Source: a virus
Taxonomy: Duplodnaviria > Caudoviricetes
Length of the DNA: 36,355 nt
Virus record (IMG/VR): IMGVR_UViG_3300032373_000061
Coordinates: 1 to 36,355 of that record
Reading direction: 5' to 3' (one strand)
Below are positions 333 through 9,789 of this stretch, piece by piece (position 1 is the first letter of the stretch; every line of letters begins with the position of its first letter). The notes below the pieces were generated by a model. It had not been told where the DNA came from. It was given only the letters and a program-made list of their open reading frames with translations, and did no database searches. The position numbers and the translations under genes are program-made.

Positions 333-842
333 ATGACCGCTATGAAGTATGACCACGGACTTTCACGCCAATCTGTCGCCGCTGCGGAGTTGATTGCTGC
401 GCTTGGCAATGACGCCGACGATGAAACCCTTGTCCACGATATGGTTGAGGGCGAAACGGACTTCTTTGAAGCTGTTGAACGCGCCCTTGATGAAATTGGC
501 GAATGTGAGATTGTTGCGGCTGGCGTCAAGGATATGCAGAAAAAGCTATCCGACCGCTTGACCCGCACTGAGAACCGCGCTGCCCGATTGCGGGGCTTGA
601 TAGATCAGGCATTTCAAATGGCCGAGGTCACAAGTCACAAGTTCCCGACCGCCACCATCAGCACAAAGAAGATACCGCAAAAGATGATTGTTGTCGATGA
701 GGCGGCAATACCTTCTGAGTATTTCGCCCCGCAACCGCCGAAGCTGGACCGCAAGGCGTTGACGGACGCTGTGAAGGCTGGGGCAGTGCCCGGCGCGGAA
801 CTGAGCAACGGCGGCACAACCATTCAAATTAGGAGAGACTAA
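333..842 (+). CDS. Siphovirus Gp157-like protein
   Basis: Coiled-coil N-half plus C-terminal 'VVDEAAIPSEYF…KLDRKAL…VPGAEL' signature; directly upstream of a Bet/RecT recombinase, the usual context. True start may be the second Met (342). Confidence 0.8.
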   Translation: MTAMKYDHGLSRQSVAAAELIAALGNDADDETLVHDMVEGETDFFEAVERALDEIGECEIVAAGVKDMQKKLSDRLTRTENRAARLRGLIDQAFQMAEVTSHKFPTATISTKKIPQKMIVVDEAAIPSEYFAPQPPKLDRKALTDAVKAGAVPGAELSNGGTTIQIRRD

Positions 843-1750
843 TGGGACTTCCAGATTTCAGCCCATCACAACTAACCACCATCAAAAACACCGTAGCGCG
901 GGATACAAACCAGCTTGAGTTCGATCTGTTTATGAATGCGGCGCGGTCCTATGGGCTTGACCCGTTCCGCAAGCAGATCAGCGCCATTGTGTTCAACAAG
1001 GACAAGCCGGACAAGCGCCAGATGGCTATCATTGTCGGGCGGGATGGACTGCGGTCTATCGCGGCGCGGTGCGGCGATTATCGCCCCGCGTCCGGCCCTG
1101 CAAATATTGCCTACGACGAAAATGTGAAAAGCAACACTAATCCAAAGGGTATTATTTCGGTTGGCGTGACGTTGTACAAGCAGGACAACAAAGGTGAATG
1201 GCACCCTGTCTATGGAGAGGCTTTTTGGGACGAATTTGTCCCTGTGACAGAGATTTGGGAGTTCGACAAAGAGGCGGGCAAGAAGCAGCCAAGCGGCAAG
1301 TTTTACCCCGTTAGTGGGAACTGGGCGAAAATGCCGCTGGTTATGCTGACAAAATGCGCCGAGGGCCAAGCACTTCGGGCGGGCTGGCCAGATCAGTTCG
1401 GGAACCTTTACGCAGAAGAAGAAATGCAGGCTCATTCCACGAAAGACATTACACCCAGCCAAGAGATTGAGCAGGAGGCCGCGCACCGTCGCGAGAACGC
1501 TCTAGGCGGCAAAGGATTGCTGATGAACATGGATGACACTGGGGCGTTGCAGCGCATCCCTATGGGTGACGTGGCAGACAGATGCATGGAATTTGTCAAA
1601 GACAATGATGCTGAGGCTGTTTGGAAGTGGTCCGTTCAAAATCGCGAGGCTCTAAAGGAGTTTTGGGCCGCAACCCCGAATGATGCGCTTGAGGTCAAGA
1701 AAGTGATCGAAGCGAAAACAGCAAACATGCAAGCGGGAGTAGCAGCATGA
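842..1750 (+). CDS. bet: Phage single-strand annealing recombinase, Bet/RecT family
   Basis: Motifs 'GLDPFRKQI', 'IIVGRDGLRSIA', 'WAKMPLVMLTKCAEGQALRAGWP', 'LYAEEEM' typical of Red-beta/RecT. Confidence 0.9.
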   Translation: MGLPDFSPSQLTTIKNTVARDTNQLEFDLFMNAARSYGLDPFRKQISAIVFNKDKPDKRQMAIIVGRDGLRSIAARCGDYRPASGPANIAYDENVKSNTNPKGIISVGVTLYKQDNKGEWHPVYGEAFWDEFVPVTEIWEFDKEAGKKQPSGKFYPVSGNWAKMPLVMLTKCAEGQALRAGWPDQFGNLYAEEEMQAHSTKDITPSQEIEQEAAHRRENALGGKGLLMNMDDTGALQRIPMGDVADRCMEFVKDNDAEAVWKWSVQNREALKEFWAATPNDALEVKKVIEAKTANMQAGVAA

Positions 1751-2106
1751 AAATCATCACCATCGCCGGAAATATCGGCAAGACCGCAGAAACCCGCAAC
1801 ACCCAAAACGGACAGACCGTCACAAGCTGGGCCGTGGCCGTAGATGATGGCTGGGGCGATAACAAAACAACCATGTGGTTTGACTGCTCGTGGTGGGGGA
1901 AACGCGGCGAAAAGGTCGGTCCCTACATCCAGAAGGGCGGCAAGATCACCGTGAGCGGCGAACTGTCCAAACGTGAGCATGACGGGAAAACGTATCTCAC
2001 GGTCAACGTCAATGACGTGAAGTTGCAAAGCAAGGCGGAGCAATCTCAGGGCAACTATGACGCGCCAGCGCAGGGCCGGGATTTAGGGGACGATATCCCG
2101 TTTTAA
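1747..2106 (+). CDS. ssb: Single-stranded DNA-binding protein
   Basis: OB-fold pattern 'ITIAGNIGK…WFDCSWWGKRGE…KGGKITVSGEL' and acidic C-terminal DDIPF. Confidence 0.95.
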   Translation: MKIITIAGNIGKTAETRNTQNGQTVTSWAVAVDDGWGDNKTTMWFDCSWWGKRGEKVGPYIQKGGKITVSGELSKREHDGKTYLTVNVNDVKLQSKAEQSQGNYDAPAQGRDLGDDIPF

Positions 2107-2130
2107 CGGTATGTCTTGACATATACCGTT
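2105..2130. promoter_or_regulatory. Palindrome AACGGTAT-N10-ATACCGTT enclosing TTGACA; possible operator/promoter for the HNH gene
   Basis: Perfect 8-bp arms; TTGACA at 2116-2121; no convincing -10 box. Confidence 0.4.
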
Positions 2131-2149
2131 CTATCTGCATTGTGGACTT

Positions 2150-2620
2150 ATGGATAAAATACACACATGCAAACTCTGCGGGGCAACATCTGATTCCGCA
2201 GAGTTTTACAAAAGCACCACTTCAAGGTGCAAGGATTGCCACAAAGCCAAAGTTAGAGAAAACCGGGCGGCAAAAATAGATTATTACCGCGAATATGACG
2301 CTGAGCGGTTCCAGAATGATCCGAGAGTAAGGGAGCGCCACAAAAGGTATCAAAAGACCGCAGCGGGCAAGAAATCGACAAGGGCGGCAAAGCAAAAGTG
2401 GATATCTCAGAACCCAGAAAAAAGGGCAGCGCATGTAATCCTTGGGAACAGAGTAAGGGATGGGTCCATCGTGAAGCCAGACCGATGCGAAAAATGCGGA
2501 TGCAAGTCTAGCAGGCTGGAAGGCCATCACGAGGACTACGCGAAGCCTCTGGACGTTATATGGGTTTGCCGCCAGTGCCACGTCGATATTCACAATGCAA
2601 TCACCGGAGGTGACACCTAA
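2150..2620 (+). CDS. HNH-type zinc-binding endonuclease
   Basis: N-terminal CxxC…CxxC; C-terminal 'CEKCG…LEGHHEDYAKPLDVIWVCRQCHVDIH'. Confidence 0.8.
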   Translation: MDKIHTCKLCGATSDSAEFYKSTTSRCKDCHKAKVRENRAAKIDYYREYDAERFQNDPRVRERHKRYQKTAAGKKSTRAAKQKWISQNPEKRAAHVILGNRVRDGSIVKPDRCEKCGCKSSRLEGHHEDYAKPLDVIWVCRQCHVDIHNAITGGDT

Positions 2621-3006
2621 TGCCCGCAATCGTCCGCATAACAGATGAGGCCACCCGCGCCCGCGCTCAACATTGGGCGCGGATTGCGGAACCCGGCGTC
2701 ACCGTCACCTTTCGCAAGCCAACGCGGTCTAACGACCAGAACGCGAAACTATGGGCGATGATTAACGACATTCGCCAGCAGAAAGAAAAGCACGGCAAGG
2801 ACATGGCCGCTGATGTATGGAAGGCAGTCTTTATGCGGGCTTGTGAGCATGAAGTGGCGTTTGCAACGGGGCTTGACGGCGAACCGTTCCCAATCGGGTT
2901 CCGATCCAGCCAGTTGAGCGTTTCGCAGATGGCGGATTTGATTACCTTCATCATCCAGTGGGGCGATGAGGTTGGCGTGATCTGGTCAAAGGAGGCTAAG
3001 GCATGA
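2620..3006 (+). CDS. ninB: NinB/Orf-family recombination protein
   Basis: 'RSNDQNAKLWAMINDIRQQ…WKAVF…RSSQLSVSQMADLITFI..WG.E.GV.W' matches the NinB consensus. Confidence 0.9.
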   Translation: MPAIVRITDEATRARAQHWARIAEPGVTVTFRKPTRSNDQNAKLWAMINDIRQQKEKHGKDMAADVWKAVFMRACEHEVAFATGLDGEPFPIGFRSSQLSVSQMADLITFIIQWGDEVGVIWSKEAKA

Positions 3007-3392
3007 GCCGGATTGAGAATTTCAAGGGACCGATGGGGTTAAAGCCCGACAAGACCGCGAAAGCGCCCCGCAAGGGTATGCGCCGCGTTGCTAAGGGCAA
3101 GAAGTCCAGCAGCGAATGCCCGATTATGAAGTCGGCAAAAGGCCAGCCATGCCTTGCCGATTGGTGCGGGTGCAACGGGTCAACCGACACAACCAACATG
3201 CGCCATATCAGGAAATTCAAGATTGGCGGGATGGGACAGAAGTCACCCAACTACATCGCCTTTTATGGCTGTGACGTGGCGGAGAGAATGTTTGAGAACA
3301 GCAAAGATCAGGAATGGACATGGCGCGGCATTATGCAGGCGATGGTTCTGACCCAGATGAAACTCCGAGAAAAAGGACACCTGCCGCTATGA
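3003..3392 (+). CDS. DUF1364/YbcO-like nuclease-domain protein
   Basis: 'SAKGQPC…CNGSTDTT..RH…GGMGQKSP…AFYGC'; the second CxxCH pair is degenerate (CDVAE). Confidence 0.65.
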   Translation: MSRIENFKGPMGLKPDKTAKAPRKGMRRVAKGKKSSSECPIMKSAKGQPCLADWCGCNGSTDTTNMRHIRKFKIGGMGQKSPNYIAFYGCDVAERMFENSKDQEWTWRGIMQAMVLTQMKLREKGHLPL

Positions 3393-3676
3393 CCAACCAA
3401 CTGAAACAACTGTCCGAAGCTGCAACGCAGGGTGAGTGGTCTTGGAGCCACTTCGGGGCTGTTAAATCCATCAGAACAGAAGAAACCACAATGGCGCATT
3501 TTCATATAAGTCCTGAACGCCGTGCGCAGGAGGATGTTGAGTTTATCACCGCCCTCGTCAACGCCTATCGCGCTGGTGAACTTATCCCTACGGAAGAGGC
3601 CCGCGCCCGTGAGGCTGTGGCTTATGAGGTGGAGTTTCTTGTTGATGCCAACCCCACACAGGAGGACACCCCATGA
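3389..3676 (+). CDS. Ead/Ea22-like hypothetical protein
   Basis: Start reassigned to ATG 3389 (ATGA overlap); 'LKQLSEAATQGEW…DVEFITALVNA' pattern. Confidence 0.6.
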   Translation: MTNQLKQLSEAATQGEWSWSHFGAVKSIRTEETTMAHFHISPERRAQEDVEFITALVNAYRAGELIPTEEARAREAVAYEVEFLVDANPTQEDTP

Positions 3677-3969
3677 CAGGACACGTAGAAGCCGAAGGAT
3701 ACCGGCATATCGCAAGATGGCTTGATGAGTGCCTTGATTTTGATACCCCACCTGGGCCCCAAAGTTTAAGGGATACAGCTAAGAAGCTGCATCAGGCCGC
3801 AGACCGTATTGAAGAACTGACCACCCGCACAGACATTCACCAAGCCGCGCTTGATCGGATAGCGGAGTTGGAGAAAGGTTTAGAGGAATTGGCCTGCCGG
3901 CACGTCACATCTAAGCCGCTCTGGTGGCAGGCAATCGCTCGCGCCGCGCTGGCTAAGGGGGATGGGTGA
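3673..3969 (+). CDS. Hypothetical phage protein
   Basis: SD AGGAGG; ATGA overlap; 'AADRIEEL…ARAALAK' pattern common in phage early genes. Confidence 0.7.
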   Translation: MTGHVEAEGYRHIARWLDECLDFDTPPGPQSLRDTAKKLHQAADRIEELTTRTDIHQAALDRIAELEKGLEELACRHVTSKPLWWQAIARAALAKGDG

Positions 3970-4202
3970 TGGGCTTGCGCCAAGAGCGAATTGAGCGCCT
4001 TCTGGCTGATCTTCAATACGAAATTACGCGGGGGATGATGGAAGGCGAGATTGATGAAAGGCTTGGATTTGAGTTTTTCGTGCCGATCAGCAAGACCGTC
4101 AAAGACGGGGTTGTTCAGTGCCGTTTTGAAACGCGGCCAACAGAGAGATATTTCAACAATTCGCCGGATGGAAACCAGCCAAGGTTGAAGGTGGTCAAAT
4201 AA
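3966..4202 (+). CDS. Hypothetical phage protein
   Basis: Coupled to the upstream gene; ends 'PRLKVVK'; its TAA lies inside the 28-bp inverted repeat. Confidence 0.7.
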   Translation: MMGLRQERIERLLADLQYEITRGMMEGEIDERLGFEFFVPISKTVKDGVVQCRFETRPTERYFNNSPDGNQPRLKVVK

Positions 4203-4352
4203 CCCACTTTGTTAGGCACGGTAGCAGATCAACACCCACAGAACGCCCTTACACCCAAGGAGCAGGCGTTTTGATGTTGTTGGTTGGGCAAGACCTTAAA
4301 CACCCCAGTAGCGCCAAACTCCGCGCTATCGTGTCTAACAAAGTGGGTTATT
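4198..4352. repeat. 155-bp element bounded by 28-bp inverted repeats (26/28 identical)
   Basis: 4198-4225 AATAACCCACTTTGTTAGGCACGGTAGC; reverse complement of 4325-4352 AATAACCCACTTTGTTAGACACGATAGC; 99-bp spacer with an internal imperfect hairpin. Confidence 0.95.
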
Positions 4353-4449
4353 CAGGCTCCTTCTGTGTAGGTGTAGACGGCCCGAAAACGCGCCGCAGGC
4401 ATTCGGGACATGGATAGTCCATCGCCTTGCACTTCCAGCAATCAGCCAT
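4348..4449 (-). CDS. 33-aa CxxC…CxxC zinc-finger microprotein (below ORF-track cutoff)
   Basis: Manually translated MADCWKCKAMDYPCPECLRRVFGPSTPTQKEPE*; overlaps the upstream gene end; its TAA lies in the right inverted repeat. Confidence 0.6.
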   Translation of the reverse strand: MADCWKCKAMDYPCPECLRRVFGPSTPTQKEPE

Positions 4450-4633
4450 TGGGGTCACCGTCAGCCGATGGCTGTGAACCTTGGAACCACTGCCACGCCA
4501 GCTCTGCGACAACATCGTTTATACCGTGACCTGTGGTTTTGGCGTGCGAGGCCAATGCGCTGCACATTTGTTCAACACCAGAGCCACTTTGCGGCTTAAA
4601 AACGGTGATGTGCGGGGCTTTACGCTTTGCCAT
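4442..4633 (-). CDS. Hypothetical protein (63 aa)
   Basis: SD AAGGAG 7 nt upstream; overlaps neighbours. Confidence 0.7.
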   Translation of the reverse strand: MAKRKAPHITVFKPQSGSGVEQMCSALASHAKTTGHGINDVVAELAWQWFQGSQPSADGDPNG

Positions 4634-4988
4634 CTTCCGGCTCCTTATGTTTGGTGTAGACCGTCATAGGGTCGATGCGCTCACACTTCCCATCAGGCCA
4701 AATTCTGACCCACCCAGCGCCTAAGGCTTCCGCGTCCTCACGCGCGATTTTCAGGGCTGAAACAGGGCCCGAAAGTTGGGGGCGCTCACTTAGACTTTCA
4801 CGGCTTGGGTAGGTGTGACCCGCCGCGCACTTATCATCGCCATTCATCCTGCGCTCACGTGATTGCCCTGTGGCCCCGCACTTGGGGCAAAACCCATATG
4901 ATGGGCGCTTTACCACAGATCCACGGCTTGGCGGCTTAGATGGCGCAGCATTGCCAGTTTTTGGCCGATAGCCAGAACTATTGAACAT
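4620..4988 (-). CDS. Hypothetical protein with zinc ribbon (CPKCG…C…H)
   Basis: Start reassigned to ATG 4988 after SD AAGGAG. Confidence 0.7.
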   Translation of the reverse strand: MFNSSGYRPKTGNAAPSKPPSRGSVVKRPSYGFCPKCGATGQSRERRMNGDDKCAAGHTYPSRESLSERPQLSGPVSALKIAREDAEALGAGWVRIWPDGKCERIDPMTVYTKHKEPEDGKA

Positions 4989-5172
4989 CTTTAGTCTCCT
5001 TGGATTTAATATCTTCAAGTTCAGCCAAGTGACCTTTAAGCATTTTCAACTCACCCTCGCGCACTGCAATGTGCGTCGCGGCATCACGTAGGCGGGCAAG
5101 GTCTTGCTCGACGTGCTTTATTGCCCGCTTGGCTTTTGGAATGTCGCGCAGGTACATCGGAATATCACTCAC
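4978..5172 (-). CDS. Hypothetical coiled-coil protein (64 aa)
   Basis: GTG start after AAGGAGCC; overlaps neighbours. Confidence 0.7.
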   Translation of the reverse strand: MSDIPMYLRDIPKAKRAIKHVEQDLARLRDAATHIAVREGELKMLKGHLAELEDIKSKETKDVQ

Positions 5173-5380
5173 CTGATGGCTCCTTATCGTTGTATCTCAA
5201 TTCAGCACCACACGACGCGCAGTCATAACCCAAGTCCCTCACCGAAGGCGTCGGGTTTCTTGGTGTTGGCGACACGTATGAACCGCTAGTGACGACTATA
5301 AGTTGACTTGGACCACTACCGCACTCAGGACAGGTTCTAGGCTCATACCGCAAGCCGTATTTGATAGTGTGGTGCATCAC
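5165..5380 (-). CDS. Zinc-ribbon protein (CPECG…CASCG)
   Basis: SD AAGGAGG; two CxxC pairs. Confidence 0.7.
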   Translation of the reverse strand: MMHHTIKYGLRYEPRTCPECGSGPSQLIVVTSGSYVSPTPRNPTPSVRDLGYDCASCGAELRYNDKEPSGE

Positions 5381-5616
5381 TTGCCCTCCTTTGATTCAAC
5401 AAGGTCTCTCGCCTCTCTCAACCATTCAGCATCGGGGTCAATGCCCAGCTTTCGCCGCGCTATCGGCGTGTCCAGATGCCCCATCGCATTTTGCAACGCG
5501 CCCTCAAGTTCACGTACTCTCGCGGAATACCATGTCGAAACGCCCTTGCGAGAACCTTTGGAAACGATGGATCGCTTGCGTTGAATCAGGCGGATGGAGT
5601 TTGAACTAATTGCCAT
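5377..5616 (-). CDS. Hypothetical protein
   Basis: Start reassigned to ATG 5616 after AAGGAGCC. Confidence 0.65.
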   Translation of the reverse strand: MAISSNSIRLIQRKRSIVSKGSRKGVSTWYSARVRELEGALQNAMGHLDTPIARRKLGIDPDAEWLREARDLVESKEGK

Positions 5617-5854
5617 CTGACGGCTCCTTTTGTGCTGCCATCTTTCCAACAGCCTCCGAAATTTCCGCAGGCGTAAACCCCTCTTTTTTGAGCTGCGCCC
5701 GAACACCCTTAGCTGTTGCGCCGGGCCGTGATCCCAAGTCGTGAAGCGCGATGATAACCCGATCAATGACTAAGCTGTGTTCGTACTGCGCCTGCGTAAT
5801 GCCACGCCTATCGCGCTCTGTTTGGCGACCCGCGCCCTGCATCGGTTGCATCAT
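5606..5854 (-). CDS. Hypothetical protein, possible helical DNA-binding fold
   Basis: SD AAGGAG, ATGA overlap; 'VRAQLKKEGFTPAEISEAV'. Confidence 0.65.
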   Translation of the reverse strand: MMQPMQGAGRQTERDRRGITQAQYEHSLVIDRVIIALHDLGSRPGATAKGVRAQLKKEGFTPAEISEAVGKMAAQKEPSDGN

Positions 5855-6342
5855 GCTTCCGGCTCCTTCTGTTTAGGCGCATTGCGCGTCCCAAGATTGT
5901 CGTTAAGCGTGGCGCGTGTCACCCACGCAAACCCCGCATCGTGAAACTCTTTGATTGCCGCCTGCCAAGTGAAAATGTCAGGGCTGTGCCACCTGTCAGC
6001 GCCCCTCTTGACCACATCAGCGGGGATCATAGGCCAGCGGGGCTTTGGCCCAGGCTTGCGCGGTTCTGGCGGCGGGCTTGCGTCATCGACCAGTTCGATG
6101 CTGGCCCCGTGTGCTTCAATCTTGCGCCGGTTCTCCGCCAGATCAAAGCCCCTGCCTAGATCAGCCATTGAAACCACATGCACCACGTCACCTGTGCGCA
6201 GCAGCATAATCATGTCAGAGAATTGAGGTCGCACCTTGTCGTCGGTATCAACCCAGATACGCCGATCACCAAACCCGTCGAGGTCAATGTCAGCCTTAGC
6301 GAAGTCTTTGACCTGCCGATTTATGCCATATCCAATATTCAT
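5851..6342 (-). CDS. Serine resolvase/invertase homologue, apparently catalytically inactive, with C-terminal HTH
   Basis: 'IGY', 'IWVD', 'RPQF', 'LRTGDVVHVVSMADLGR' align with Gin/Hin-type IGY-RVS, IFED, RPGL, GDxLVVxxLDRLGR; RVS and DR are lost; C-terminal 'VTRATLNDNLG' resembles the resolvase HTH recognition helix. Confidence 0.7.
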   Translation of the reverse strand: MNIGYGINRQVKDFAKADIDLDGFGDRRIWVDTDDKVRPQFSDMIMLLRTGDVVHVVSMADLGRGFDLAENRRKIEAHGASIELVDDASPPPEPRKPGPKPRWPMIPADVVKRGADRWHSPDIFTWQAAIKEFHDAGFAWVTRATLNDNLGTRNAPKQKEPEA

Positions 6343-6348
6343 AAAGTG

Positions 6349-6377
6349 ACGTTACGCCCTTACTATAAACAGGTCAA
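6349..6377 (-). promoter_or_regulatory. Sigma70-like promoter predicted to give a leaderless mRNA for the resolvase-like gene
   Basis: TTGACC-17 bp-TAACGT-6 nt-ATG; no SD present. Confidence 0.65.
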
Positions 6378-6420
6378 CACATAGCGGGATTATTTAATTC
6401 ATTTTTGTAGGAGATATTTC

Positions 6421-6449
6421 TTGCAGTGTTGTTGATCCGCGCTTAAGGT
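6421..6449 (+). promoter_or_regulatory. Sigma70-like promoter for the rightward accessory array
   Basis: TTGCAG-17 bp-TAAGGT, preceded by an AT-rich tract. Confidence 0.5.
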
Positions 6450-6484
6450 GTAGGAATAACCTCAGAAACAGAAGGACCGAACCG

Positions 6485-6685
6485 ATGAAACTCAGTGCAA
6501 CAGACATTCACAATCTTCGCACATTGACAGTCAAGTCCACTGATTACAAAGGGCCGCAGCGTGGTATGCGCAAACTGATAGACGCCGGACTTGTTGATCG
6601 CACCGAAGGCGAAGCGCCCGCAGGAAAATCATATACTGTTTATTTTTACAACACTACAGACGCAGGCAAACAGGCGGTGGCGTAA
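6485..6685 (+). CDS. Small winged-helix-like hypothetical protein
   Basis: SD AAGGA; 'RKLIDAGLVDR…YNTTDAGKQAV' resembles a wHTH wing. Confidence 0.7.
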   Translation: MKLSATDIHNLRTLTVKSTDYKGPQRGMRKLIDAGLVDRTEGEAPAGKSYTVYFYNTTDAGKQAVA

Positions 6686-6919
6686 GCCCCGACCACCTCT
6701 TACAGATTAGGACCGAGAACATGCTCACAATCGAAATGAAATGGAAGCAGGCGGCACGCATCGCAATCATGGCGCTGGAAAACGGCACCGAAGAAGGTAA
6801 GCGCCTCGCCCGAGAAGAAATTATGCAAATGGCGGACGTTGCTGACTTTGCGGTTGATCTGCAAAATGAAATCAAAACGGCGGCGGCGTAAGCCCCGCCC
6901 ACCTCTTACAGATTAGGAC
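6673..6919 (+). repeat. 41-bp direct repeat, two copies (6673-6713, 6879-6919; 39/41 identical), with a partial third copy at 7142-7153
   Basis: GGCGGYGGCGTAAGCCCCGMCCACCTCTTACAGATTAGGAC; contains the upstream stop codon in a GTAA-loop hairpin plus the next RBS. Confidence 0.95.
6721..6891 (+). CDS. 56-aa hypothetical protein flanked by the 41-bp repeats
   Basis: Manually translated MLTIEMKWKQAARIAIMALENGTEEGKRLAREEIMQMADVADFAVDLQNEIKTAAA*; SD AGGA supplied by the repeat. Confidence 0.75.
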   Translation: MLTIEMKWKQAARIAIMALENGTEEGKRLAREEIMQMADVADFAVDLQNEIKTAAA

Positions 6920-7130
6920 GGGTTTCTGACCGCGCAGAACTTTAGGCCGATGACGCGGAGACCCAGTTGGCCTGACGAAACAAGGAGGACGCTATGACCC
7001 GTACAGTGGGCTTGGTTGCACGCTGAAAGGGGTTACAGAAACAGGGGCAGCGCCGTTAGATCCGCTGCATGATGATTGAAAACACAGAGTGTATGACTGG
7101 ACCTGAGTACGTCCCTAAAAACTGCTCACC
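6920..7130 (+). ncRNA. Candidate structured RNA (several hairpins, 3' H-type pseudoknot) containing a 10-aa ORF at 6994-7026
   Basis: Pairings TTCTG/CAGAA, TAGGCCGA/TTGGCCTG, GCAGCG/CGCTGC; pseudoknot GGAC/GTCC with TGAGTA/TGCTCA; no long ORF. Confidence 0.35.
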
Positions 7131-7180
7131 AGATTAACCAAAGATTAGGACGGACAGATGCTTGATTCAGTTGGTGGCGC

Positions 7181-7813
7181 ATGATGGGAAGCGAACGTGT
7201 TGTGCAGATATCACGACAAGACACCAAACCGTTTTTGCTCGGCATACATTACGCTCGCAGAATGCCGAGCATTTCGTTAGCTTATGGCCTACTACGGGAT
7301 GACAAACTTGAAGGCGTCGCAACCTACGGGACACCACCTAGTGCTACGCTTCGCAGCGGGCTTTGTGGCCCTGATTATGTCGAAAATGTGCTGGAGTTAA
7401 ACCGGCTTTGCCTAAAGGCGAACGCTAAGAACGATGCGTCTAGGTTAATTTCAAACTCGCTTAGGCTTATACAGGGGAACCGCATTATCGTCAGTTTTGC
7501 TGACACTTCGCATGGACATTTGGGTATCGTGTATCAGGCCTCTAATTTCTTATACTGCGGGCTGTCCGCGAAGCGCACCGATTGGAAGGTTAGGGGCAAG
7601 GAACATCTTCACGGTCAGACAATCGCTGATGAGTTTCGCGGGGTTAAAAACAGGGCGAAAGCAATGCGGGAAAAATATGGTGCCGATTTCTATCTTGAGC
7701 CGCGCCCGCGCAAACATAGGTATGTAATGATATTGGGGGATCGGAAGTTCAAGCGCGCTGCGCTGGCTGCGCTGAGATACGGATTGGAACCCTACCCGAA
7801 ACAAGAAGCATAA
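7181..7813 (+). CDS. mom: Mom-family (GNAT-like) DNA adenine-modification protein
   Basis: Motifs 'HY', 'GVATYG', 'LELNRL', 'IVSFAD…H.GIVYQASNFLYCG', 'KHRY' characteristic of phage Mu Mom homologues. Confidence 0.8.
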   Translation: MMGSERVVQISRQDTKPFLLGIHYARRMPSISLAYGLLRDDKLEGVATYGTPPSATLRSGLCGPDYVENVLELNRLCLKANAKNDASRLISNSLRLIQGNRIIVSFADTSHGHLGIVYQASNFLYCGLSAKRTDWKVRGKEHLHGQTIADEFRGVKNRAKAMREKYGADFYLEPRPRKHRYVMILGDRKFKRAALAALRYGLEPYPKQEA

Positions 7814-7828
7814 AAGGACGGATTGAAA

Positions 7829-7987
7829 ATGAACTACGGTCTTGAAAATAGCGCCAACTGGGGTTGGGATTGGTTCGGGTCTATGGCGGAAGCCGTTGCT
7901 GCTATGAAGGCGCGGCCTGTCCTTTACGGCACCAATGATGCGCCCATCGCAATGACAGGTGCGGAAATTGCCGCACAGAACCTATAG
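7829..7987 (+). CDS. 52-aa hypothetical protein
   Basis: Manually translated MNYGLENSANWGWDWFGSMAEAVAAMKARPVLYGTNDAPIAMTGAEIAAQNL*; SD AAGGA; fills the gap between neighbours. Confidence 0.55.
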   Translation: MNYGLENSANWGWDWFGSMAEAVAAMKARPVLYGTNDAPIAMTGAEIAAQNL

Positions 7988-7996
7988 GATAACATC

Positions 7997-8245
7997 ATGC
8001 AGACATATGCAAAGACCCGCCGCGACGCAGAATATCTTGAGGGGTTGATAGAGGTACACGACCTTGTGGAAGTTGACGCAGCGGTGCGTGATCTAATGGA
8101 GGCACCAAACAAAGCGAAAGCCGCAGAACTGTATTCCTCCGTAATATCCCAATGGTTTTCCGAGCAAAAAGGCGGGACGTATATGGGATACCCAAAAGTG
8201 CGCAAAATATGTCGTGATTATGGTCACGAATTTTATCTAACTTAA
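7997..8245 (+). CDS. Hypothetical protein (82 aa)
   Basis: SD AGGA; last gene before the terminator. Confidence 0.7.
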   Translation: MQTYAKTRRDAEYLEGLIEVHDLVEVDAAVRDLMEAPNKAKAAELYSSVISQWFSEQKGGTYMGYPKVRKICRDYGHEFYLT

Positions 8246-8261
8246 GGACCGCCTTGAACGC

Positions 8262-8298
8262 AAAAAGCCCCCGCTCCAATCAAGGAACGGGGGCTTTG
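8262..8298. terminator. Intrinsic terminator between convergent operons, probably bidirectional
   Basis: AAAAAGCCCCCG…CGGGGGCTTT hairpin. Confidence 0.8.
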
Positions 8299-8310
8299 CT
8301 GTGCGGGTTG

Positions 8311-8538
8311 TCACGCCTCTGGCTGTTTGCATTCGCGCTCATGCGTTAGGTTCGTCTTGTAGTCTTTCCGCAGATTCCACGGGGCATTTGCCGCCCGCCA
8401 ATCAAGTTCCGCCTGAGTGAACTTGCGTTTTTCTTCAACATCGCAGAACAGCGCGTCATCAGATGCGACGACTTTAGGGGAGCAACCAGTGGTCAGGGAC
8501 ATTGCGCAGATCATCATCAGGGATGTTATCAACTTCAT
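8311..8538 (-). CDS. o-spanin (Rz1-like lipoprotein)
   Basis: Signal peptide with lipobox-like 'SLTTGC'; overlaps the end of the i-spanin; last lysis gene. Confidence 0.7.
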   Translation of the reverse strand: MKLITSLMMICAMSLTTGCSPKVVASDDALFCDVEEKRKFTQAELDWRAANAPWNLRKDYKTNLTHERECKQPEA

Positions 8539-8731
8539 TGTCGGATTCCTTATCTTCGATCAGATTGAGCGCCCGCGCCTCGCAGGCACCCAGAGACAGC
8601 GCCAAAGCTACCTTATCGGCCTGTGACGCCCGCAAGCGTTGGGTCTGCACCCACAGCGCCCCAGAGAGGCCCAGAGAGGCCACAAGGGCCGCTCCTGCGA
8701 TGTAGGGCATGAATGGGCGGAGAAAGATCAT
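8474..8731 (-). CDS. i-spanin (Rz-like)
   Basis: Start reassigned to ATG 8731; N-terminal TM followed by a helical periplasmic part; follows the endolysin. Confidence 0.7.
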   Translation of the reverse strand: MIFLRPFMPYIAGAALVASLGLSGALWVQTQRLRASQADKVALALSLGACEARALNLIEDKESDNEVDNIPDDDLRNVPDHWLLP

Positions 8732-9372
8732 TCCGCCAGCCGCGCCAGTCGCTTGCGAAACAGCCACACCAGCGCAATCCCAGATAGGCCCAGCCCGCCC
8801 ATAGCGACATACTGCGCAACAGGATCAAGATTGCCGAGGCCACTAAGGACGCCCGCGCCTGCCGCGCCAATGCCACCGAGGCCTGCAAGCAAGCCCTTAG
8901 ACTGCCCATCCTTGGCAACGGTATCCGGTTCGCGTGGAATCTCGACTGCGAAGCTGGGTGTTTGTACCCGCTTAGGGAACGCTTTACCCCATCTCGCCCG
9001 GTTAGGGCGCGCATCCACATGCACAAAGTTTTGCTTGGGATAAGTGCCGATAGCGTTGAAGCCCACCGACAAAGCCGCCGTGATGTAGGTGTCTGGGTCG
9101 TGGTTATCCATGCGCACGTCAAAGGCGATGGCCTCAAGGTGCTTGCTGCGCGTTGCCCCGCCAACCCGCTTATTGTGCTGGGGGCTGCGGTATGCGCTGT
9201 TGACGATCATTGGCTTGCCCAGCTTTTCGCGCAGGGCTTGTAGCTTATCCATCGCGCTAGGTACGATCATCAGCCGCCCGGTGCCGCGACACGCCATTTC
9301 TTCAGGGCTGAAATTTGGCCAGCGCCATTCCGACATGGGGTAATCGCGCCAGTGGTTGTATACTTTGGTCAT
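8728..9372 (-). CDS. Endolysin, peptidase M15 family, with C-terminal hydrophobic segments
   Basis: 'SAYRSPQHN..VGGA..SKH…AFDV…FVHVD' zinc-peptidase motifs; two Gly-rich hydrophobic stretches at the C-terminus. Confidence 0.9.
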   Translation of the reverse strand: MTKVYNHWRDYPMSEWRWPNFSPEEMACRGTGRLMIVPSAMDKLQALREKLGKPMIVNSAYRSPQHNKRVGGATRSKHLEAIAFDVRMDNHDPDTYITAALSVGFNAIGTYPKQNFVHVDARPNRARWGKAFPKRVQTPSFAVEIPREPDTVAKDGQSKGLLAGLGGIGAAGAGVLSGLGNLDPVAQYVAMGGLGLSGIALVWLFRKRLARLAE

Positions 9373-9384
9373 GTCTGTCTCCGG

Positions 9385-9789
9385 TTACAGGTTCAGGATT
9401 GCGCCGATTGATTGCTGCAACCCGTTTTCGTCGGTGAACGTCCATACCGCCTCGGCCCGGTCCCCCGGTTGGAGTGCGGGGCAATCCGCGCCAGTCCAGT
9501 CGCTTGCCGTGTAAGTGTCGGTTGTGCCGTTGTAGACACCATCGCCAGAACCCGCGCAAAGCTGGTATGTGATGCCGTCCAACACACGGACCACCTCGGC
9601 AGTCCAACGCCCCGGCATAGTTGGGCCAGTTGTGGGGGACAATCGCTGCGTAAAGTTCCCGCCCGAATAACTTAGCTCCTCAATGATGAGCGCCCTCGCG
9701 GGGGGATTAACCTTGTTCGCCGTGAAGTCTGCACCGAAAGCCACGGCAAGGCCGATCCCAGCCGCGCCGAAACTTGAAGTGATGTTCAT
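9385..9789 (-). CDS. Hypothetical exported/membrane-anchored protein in the lysis region
   Basis: N-terminal hydrophobic segment, one Cys pair; ATGA-coupled. Confidence 0.65.
   Translation of the reverse strand: MNITSSFGAAGIGLAVAFGADFTANKVNPPARALIIEELSYSGGNFTQRLSPTTGPTMPGRWTAEVVRVLDGITYQLCAGSGDGVYNGTTDTYTASDWTGADCPALQPGDRAEAVWTFTDENGLQQSIGAILNL

Follow-up and report, generated by a model that had tools for sequence, protein, structure and literature searches.

Introduction

By which route are small genes gained and lost in a two-armed gene row headed by a resolvase-like gene, and what does the head protein do there? This question is raised by positions 4198-8300 of the virus record IMGVR_UViG_3300032373_000061 (Duplodnaviria; Caudoviricetes), of which the whole analysed stretch, positions 1 to 36,355, is called the window. 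In this part of the window, hereafter the island, a head gene for a 163-aa resolvase-derived protein lies at 5851-6342 on the − strand (assigned by Pfam, structure model and alignment), seven small overlapping open reading frames (ORFs) follow it leftward, and further small genes run rightward from the other side of an intergenic region, the platform. An earlier note, made from the sequence alone, had taken the island for an independently regulated and extensible cassette platform with a dead resolvase at its head. In the reading that we favour, with some reserve, the island would be a repressed expression platform of lambdoid-type phages on which genes are swapped, guided by homology, at a ribosome-binding-site (RBS) motif. 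The platform and the joints are the part that we hold to be highly probable, and repression by the head protein is given slightly better than an even chance.

Data and searches

The window is a near-complete linear phage record (CheckV 99%) with SU10-type capsid and portal and a gene set which we take to be alphaproteobacterial. It does not include the region between its two record ends, and any repressor or immunity region there lies outside the view. Twenty-three related loci were collected, and the close set with a readable right side came to 11 (window, L001, L002, L003, L005, L011, L012, L014, L016, L017 and L018). L010 (the window's own record), L004 and L015 (the record of L001), L013 (a near copy of L012 with 1 difference in 277 nt, the two being counted as one) and L023 (weak) were dropped. 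Loci matched by the C-terminal part of the head protein only (L006/L019/L020, L007/L024, L008, L021 and L022) served either as variants or for joints in the left arm, and the joint statistics covered 14 right arms and 16 left arms, with L029 and L038 included. For the head protein, a profile search gave 86 proteins in a 50%-identity library, mostly of about 150 aa, of which 74 were aligned; catalytic residues are numbered as in gamma-delta resolvase.

Results

A junction motif of its own recurs in each arm, as the earlier note had stated. Six copies of AGGAC[CG]G occur on the + strand in 36 kb, all in the right arm, and five copies of AAGGAGCC, all in the left arm, and 0 of 1000 shuffles reached either count. 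The motifs stand 5-9 nt upstream of start codons, therefore they are most simply, and likely, RBSs; a dedicated cassette recombinase would thus be unneeded, and none was found. Each motif is also present after the last gene of its arm, at 4355-4362 on the left and at 8244-8251 (+ strand) on the right, where the orphan terminal junction AAGGACCG has no ORF downstream.

The right arms form a series of alleles. They hold 0 genes in L012, 2 in L018 and L014, 4 in L011 and L002 and about 9 in L005, while that of the window holds five genes plus a non-coding unit; the right arms of L003, L016 and L017 are cut by contig ends. When L011 was compared with L012, L011 with L018 and L018 with L012, the sequence common at the crossover was exactly AAGGACC, and the crossover window was AAGGACCG for L014 against L012 and for the window against L012, so that it equalled the motif in 5/5 nested right-arm comparisons. 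The one left-arm case tested gave AAAGGAG. An assembly collapse is an unlikely source of the empty allele, since the common window of 7 bp is presumably shorter than usual assembly words.

Joint positions were also counted. By a strict filter, 15 of 18 distinct positions in the right arm fall within 2 nt of a motif (background 4.8%), and in the left arm 11 of 21 do so (background 5.1%) and 17 of 21 lie within 10 nt (14%). Such counts could arise by selection only, if the motifs were merely strong RBSs, the joints random and illegitimate, and the survivors those with whole genes; the head protein would then maybe still be a regulator. Many right-arm spacers measure only 9-15 nt and have the motif joined directly to the stop codon, therefore a uniform null is too easily beaten and some joints would meet the motif by selection alone. 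A few joints lie at an ATG or within genes, L007 lost most of its platform in a deletion at a joint unrelated to the motif, and the joints in the neighbouring tail at 3400-4200 are not at these motifs. These observations suit selection and weigh against joints guided by homology. The latter also have against them the loose filter, which counts the ends of plain divergence too (23/57 right and 30/132 left within 15 nt), the non-independence of the joints as events and the fact that nested alleles give no direction. A stronger test is given by the nested alleles. A random intergenic joint falls in register with a chance of about 1-2%, yet the empty allele and a case with a 52-nt spacer are each in exact register; the orphan terminal copy serves no gene, yet homology begins exactly there in the window, L011, L012, L014, L018, L029, L038 and L045; and other window genes use varied RBSs, which also speaks against the motifs being nothing else. 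Selection as the sole cause is therefore considered unlikely.

Gains of genes are implied by different cargo on platforms that are 88-96% identical, and by one gene which is 98.8% identical between L011 and L016, the platforms of which align only patchily at about 79%. A contig of run X3 follows the long junction (described below) through AGGAC and then enters another gene. Among the matches listed, the contig data contained no joint inside the right arm, a result that bears on circular cassettes. As a separate observation, the third cargo gene of L011 (right arm, about 725-740) differs from the intact copy of L016 by a short insertion at its start, which a 4-base duplication flanks.

The divergent promoters named by the earlier note are predicted from their spacing, which is conserved across 10 aligned loci. 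The leftward one reads TTGACC-17 nt-TAACGT with 6 nt to the ATG (6349-6377, − strand) and the rightward one TTGCAG-17 nt-TAAGGT (6421-6449, + strand), followed by the platform copy of the junction, AAGGACCG (6472-6479, + strand), which is the likely RBS of the first cargo gene. This geometry of promoter spacing and first motif is kept in 11/11 close loci, where the first AGGA(C/A) motif stands about 130 nt from the head ATG. In the same 11 loci 6 nt separate the left −10 box from the head ATG, and no Shine-Dalgarno sequence is present (L029, L038 and L006 differ), therefore a leaderless head mRNA is predicted. The comparison of homologues that had been set beforehand thus found divergent promoter geometry and motifs kept, cargo variable and breaks at the motifs.

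The resolvase origin of the head protein was assigned from several matches. Its sequence matches PF00239 with E 4.5e-5 (24 bits, cut-off 23.3), and its structure model matches a resolvase in Foldseek (E 1.4e-4), Sin with Z 11.2 (rmsd 8.0, 88 aligned) and the Tn3 resolvase with Z 10.8 (rmsd 2.3, 81 aligned). The likeness to the resolvase catalytic domain spans residues 1-87 (model pLDDT 94). The Y-x-R-x-S nucleophile motif is found in 0/74 aligned proteins, the window reading GYGINR; the Ser10 column holds Arg in 63 and Ser in 1 of the 74, the Arg8 column mainly Tyr, Ile or Phe, and the Arg68 column Asp in 65. In place of D-R-L-x-R (Asp67, Arg68, Arg71) the window has ADLGR, and a DRLxR-like word occurs in three members, in two of which it sits upstream, near the Arg45 column. 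The former active site is taken by an invariant Tyr and by Arg and Asp residues that are newly conserved. The long helix E is absent as well, for no helix lies between residues 84 and 106 (model pLDDT 94) and a Pro-rich linker stands there instead; the distance from motif to arm has a median of 33 aa (44 members measured) versus 73 in the intact L038 protein. In the model, the C-terminal part is made of a GP/GR arm followed by three helices, and it is likely a DNA-binding helix-turn-helix (HTH) domain. Judged from the alignment, the head protein is a catalytically dead resolvase derivative, as the earlier note had called it, and cannot resolve because the nucleophile and helix E are missing.

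The gene itself is not a pseudogene. Its dN/dS was 0.13-0.24 in 6/6 pairs, with the lowest values in the C-terminal domain (0.05-0.15) and about 0.2 in the N-terminal domain, and the gene is under purifying selection. In a quick tree (the careful search was unfinished), 6 intact resolvases fall on one side, and two dead forms that retain a helix E-like stretch fall between, on long branches and with unsure placement. P0075, in which the active site is lost and a helix E-like stretch is retained, is a possible evolutionary intermediate.

Other occupants of the head slot were met by scanning for the junctions. A long-junction scan gave 6 matches, namely 2 known loci, 1 new locus (L029) and 3 arrays with no head gene (L030-L032). 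L029 has a distant dead member in the same layout, on a far branch of the quick tree. A terminal-motif scan gave 16 matches including L038, where the whole layout is present with an intact serine resolvase in the head slot, and L045, an array with a terminator and no resolvase gene; the other 14 looked like chance, with no family match and no matching terminator by eye. The slot of G007 is taken by a ribbon-helix-helix (RHH)-type ORF (NikA-like, E 4e-5, under the cut-off), behind which a GIY-YIG-like domain is fused to the C-terminal domain of the head protein. Therefore the slot takes various DNA-binding proteins and the junctions work without the head protein. The tie between resolvase gene and arrays, on which the cassette proposal had leaned, is present in 11/11 close loci and absent from 3/6 matches found by the repeat first, from L045 and from G007; the link is not obligatory. 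Fusions of a GIY-YIG-like domain with the C-terminal domain of the dead resolvase were seen in L006 (6731-7186), P0023, P0026 and L021, placed after an RHH-type ORF, as domain swapping at the head slot.

Two other roles for the head protein were weighed with these occupants. It may be a fixed first cargo that acts as a decoy or competitor and binds res-type sites or the resolvases of the host or of other mobile elements. The N-terminal domain is conserved though catalytically empty (dN/dS as given above), the C-terminal domain is also found fused to the GIY-YIG-like domain (P0023, P0026, L006), and no clear operator was seen, all of which agree with a decoy. However, the head gene is the only constant gene, always first and with leaderless geometry, an RHH-type gene takes the slot in G007, and helix E, the main partner surface of resolvases, is gone; we hold a decoy to be very unlikely. 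Alternatively, the head protein or its intact ancestor would be a dedicated recombination factor that steers crossovers to AAGGACC, in an integron-like way with the RBS as att site. Joints that are exact to the base at a motif too short for ordinary annealing, the intact serine resolvase in the L038 slot and the invariant Tyr and new Arg/Asp residues in the old active site would suit such a factor, but the nucleophile and helix E are absent, the same junctions are found in arrays that lack the gene (L030-L032, L045) or have an RHH gene instead (G007), and the motif is not a palindromic site of 28-30 bp as resolvases use. Steering by the head protein is thus hardly probable. A TnpR-like autorepressor, not a cassette recombinase, is by analogy the most likely role, because the slot also takes an intact resolvase or an RHH protein and arrays exist without a head gene.

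The right arm of the window starts with cargo R1 (6485-6685, + strand), of 66 aa and no family. It is followed by a first long junction (6667-6716, + strand), made of a small hairpin over the stop codon and AGATTAGGACC, then by cargo R2 (6721-6891, + strand; 56 aa, phrog_22670) and a second long junction (6873-6922, + strand). The two copies have 91% identity over 47 nt, and the long junction is common to L005 and partly to L001, L017 and L029. The stop codon lies within the hairpin (6676-6700 and 6881-6903), the loop of which is GYAA/GTAA. This hairpin is also seen in L001, L005, L017 and L029-L032; it recurs in unrelated phage arrays and is a possible RNA-stabilising or antitermination element.

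Behind the second copy, a non-coding unit lies between two junctions (6920-7140, + strand), with no ORF of at least 25 aa behind an RBS. The earlier note had called it structured, a description that did not hold: it folds like its shuffles (z 0.06 for the whole, 0.02 to −0.30 for parts) and has no match in Rfam. It was also considered as a hammerhead or other known RNA and rejected, since Rfam gave no match and an exact 18-mer scan gave 3 unrelated matches. A possible pseudoknot was noted by eye at 6920-6973 (6920-6934 with 6954-6964, and 6944-6950 with 6967-6973), for which no relative was found, and a 10-codon ORF (6994-7026) behind a perfect AAGGAGG (together 6982-7026) may be a leader peptide. 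A 28-nt motif at 7100-7127 (GAC-CTGAGTA-N-GTC...AAAACTGCTC) occurs in about 170 viral stretches from widely differing phages, frequently downstream of a gene end or next to tRNAs. It can fold as a small H-type pseudoknot, and four extra copies show compensatory stem changes; no Rfam match was obtained in 20 loci, no paper on it was found, and its 120 loci (L080-L199) hold no dead-resolvase gene. A second ORF-free unit was seen in the right arm of L006, about 950-1190 nt from the RHH start, between AGGAC junctions and with hairpins and a CTGCTGA...GAAAC core; it had no Rfam match at the gathering score.

The Mom-family DNA modification gene (7181-7813, + strand; PF25680, E 1.8e-37) is preceded by a junction at 7142-7154, and L005 has a copy of the gene with 81% identity. 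An 8-codon ORF (7158-7184), whose stop overlaps the Mom start, is a possible leader peptide. Cargo R4 (7829-7987, + strand; 52 aa) stands behind a junction at 7814-7821, and cargo R5 (7997-8245, + strand; 82 aa) behind the variant junction AGGAT. A terminator hairpin (8262-8298, fold z −3.5) closes the arm against the converging lysis genes, and related hairpins occur in L011, L012, L014, L018, L029, L038 and L045; the small rightward ORFs, Mom gene and terminator of the earlier description were thus all found again. When 80 island proteins of the relatives and the window were searched against Pfam, the families over the cut-off were Mom (L005), Acb2/Tad1, DUF3560, DUF551 and DUF1653. The Acb2/Tad1 hairpin family was matched in L011 (E 4.6e-16), and the protein is identical in L018. 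Mom blocks restriction, and Acb2/Tad1 proteins soak up defence signals. The suggestion of anti-defence cargo accordingly stands for these two families; by sequence match counter-defence families appear to be a minority only, and most cargo has no assigned function.

The seven overlapping ORFs of the left arm (4348-5854, − strand) lie at 5606-5854, 5377-5616, 5165-5380, 4978-5172, 4620-4988, 4442-4633 and 4348-4449, and three of them contain CxxC pairs, which agrees with the Zn-type motifs read there before. The AAGGAG(CC) junctions are located inside the last codons of the upstream gene. In L008 (1284-2012; record G009), a 243-aa protein stands cargo-like in the left arm behind a AAGGAGCC junction and has a tyrosine-recombinase C-terminal match (E 6.6e-7). 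A 28-bp inverted repeat (4198-4352, arms 4198-4225 and 4325-4352) lies at the convergence of the left arm with the recombination operon and has the stop codons of both last ORFs at its base. The repeat is real, as had been claimed (26/28 complementary, z −4.5), but it was found in no relative; 7 single-arm matches were all unrelated, by which it was rejected as a conserved element, and an Rfam microRNA match reflects the long hairpin only. It is likely a local terminator-like hairpin. In run X3 a variant of 4198-4352 keeps identical arms with an altered interior, therefore the arms may be under local selection.

As to the surroundings, a RecT/SSB/NinB recombination operon lies at 333-3392 and the lysis module starts at 8311, and the island sits at the point where this operon and the late operon converge. 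Run X3 also shows mosaicism in the small-gene tail of the recombination operon (3389-4202), where the joints fall within genes and not at RBS motifs. The nine compared records have 0-4.1 kb of DNA in common pairwise. The island lies between the annealing-protein gene and the endolysin in G000, G001, G002, G005 and G006; in G004 the left arm faces the endolysin, and G003, G007 and G009 were not placeable. The earlier note had seen the island at the usual int/attP position. No tyrosine integrase (PF00589) was found in the window, G001-G005 or G007, but in L012, which carries the empty allele, xis, a tyrosine integrase and a tRNA-like attP (anticodon CCC) converge on the left arm (5523-6837). The integrases of L012 and G006 are on the recombination-operon side, and G009 also has one. 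Replacement of int/attP by the island as a rule was rejected on account of L012 and G006. Neither the head protein and three further members of its family nor the right-arm DNA had a match among annotated phages and plasmids, and GTDB genomes gave a single weak match, in an unrelated genome.

Discussion

We propose that the swapping follows from the order of each unit, which would be spacer, ORF, stop and motif, so that any crossover between motifs would leave every remaining gene with an RBS. Losses would occur by deletion between direct repeats. For gains, phage annealing proteins (RecT, ERF or Sak4) would pair a long anchor and resolve at the motif, the anchor being the platform, a shared gene or the long junctions of 19-47 nt; anchor-assisted illegitimate recombination is a known process. 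An annealing-protein gene is present in 5/9 whole records (RecT, ERF or Sak4 among the carriers), and the window's candidate for the crossovers is a RecT-family single-strand annealing protein outside the island (842-1750, + strand). Two points count against annealing as the route. The annealing-protein match is absent from G003, G004, G007 and G009, which are incomplete records, and the minimal pairing segment reported for Red-beta is 23-27 bp, far above 7 bases (PMC3945230). Therefore gains likely need a one-sided anchor or the 19-47 nt long junctions, and the crossover enzyme is a candidate only.

For regulation, the head protein, translated from a leaderless mRNA, would bind the intergenic region via its arm-HTH domain, repress both promoters and shut the island after an early burst, like TnpR at the divergent Tn3 res promoters. 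TnpR binding autoregulates both divergent promoters in Tn3 res (PMC7157771). A resolvase kept for repression alone could lose catalysis and helix E. In L038, with the intact resolvase, a 16-bp inverted repeat covers both −10 boxes. Several results speak against repression and its proposed history. A sigma-70 consensus scan of 3000-9500 found 0 promoters, both predicted ones being below the threshold, so that of the sigma70-like pair claimed before the conserved spacing stands and the consensus match does not. The dead-resolvase loci showed only imperfect inverted repeats of 8-10 bp around the left −35 and no clear conserved operator, and no res subsites were identified. The leads to an HTH are weak (atlas 0.79-0.82, homeodomain E 0.04), and 1/74 proteins matches AT_hook at E 0.04. 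The intact L038 resolvase is not a close sister of the dead family in the quick tree, and the genomic context is known for 1 distant dead member only (L029).

A bolder version would combine both parts into a recombinase-free, integron-like system, in which the RBS serves as attachment site, genes move as small circles with one AAGGACC each, insertions are expressed at once, and the domesticated dead resolvase represses the island and gates or steers the crossovers, with counter-defence genes sampled at a controlled rate. We regard this as quite improbable and prefer the repressed platform with homology-guided swapping at the RBS motif.

A search of the literature, mostly without subscription papers and without supplements, gave no description of the dead-resolvase family or of the arrangement; the new parts are this family and the empty allele. 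The alleles form a base-exact natural series (empty, 2, 4 and 5+ genes) for the gain and loss of small phage accessory genes, and the series bears on homology-guided versus random joints in phage mosaicism. The family comprises about 80 divergent resolvase-derived proteins that have neither catalysis nor helix E, which makes it a clear candidate case of enzyme-to-regulator conversion. Should the head gene serve as a marker in the manner of Aca genes, its neighbours would include counter-defence genes of undescribed kinds; among the 80 island proteins, only Mom and Acb2/Tad1 matched a known counter-defence family over the cut-off.

Comparison with known systems

In an integron, a single promoter reads genes that lack promoters of their own and are each followed by a copy of the repeated junction; the platform itself holds one copy, and it can be empty. 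The island is alike in having one predicted promoter per arm upstream of the cassettes and in the existence of an empty right arm (L012/L013). Unlike an integron, it has no IntI-type recombinase and no attC-type long hairpin, only two window junctions carrying a small one; its junction is 7-8 bp, and its two arms use different junctions.

In Aca-regulated anti-CRISPR operons, a constant small DNA-binding gene stands with variable counter-defence genes under a shared promoter. In the island, too, one small and putatively DNA-binding gene stays constant beside a row of small genes that varies, but the candidate regulator is a dead resolvase, divergent from one arm, and its repression is predicted only.

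The boundary or linker sequences of lambdoid phages place mosaic joints at short shared sequences of gene edges. The island resembles these, and relaxed recombination of the Rad52-like kind (PMC3945230), in that the joints are at short gene-edge sequences and the carriers encode RecT, ERF or Sak4. In contrast to such recombination, the windows of the island are below the 23-27 bp minimum reported for Red-beta (PMC3945230) and are concentrated in one regulated island.

With TnpR/res of Tn3, the island has in common that a resolvase-family gene and a second operon diverge from a short intergenic region holding both promoters (PMC7157771), and L038 shows the Tn3 res layout with an intact resolvase. 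In contrast to the Tn3 resolvase, the window's head protein has neither nucleophile nor helix E. A scan of 43 window ORFs gave no transposase, and no res subsites were identified.

In T4-like phages, PeSLs cause indels by crossover between short repeated regulatory elements, and their authors compare them to integrons (PMC2839356; PMC4122927). The island agrees with PeSL shuffling in its hyperplastic rows of small unknown genes, its indels by crossover from element to element and the one element left at an empty site; in both, no dedicated recombinase is known. Each PeSL has its own promoter and terminator, whereas here one promoter per arm is predicted, and the junctions of the island, of 7-47 nt, contain no promoter boxes and thus differ from the promoter plus stem-loop that defines a PeSL. 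The common element can shrink to an RBS-like motif of 7-8 bp, and the island has a divergent platform with its own head gene and is found in unrelated lambdoid-type phages, while the PeSLs of these sources belong to T4-like phages. Mini-circles were shown there for PeSLs; the island is known here from contigs alone. In conclusion, the island lacks defining features of both PeSLs and integrons, and it resembles PeSL shuffling and gives an integron-like outcome.

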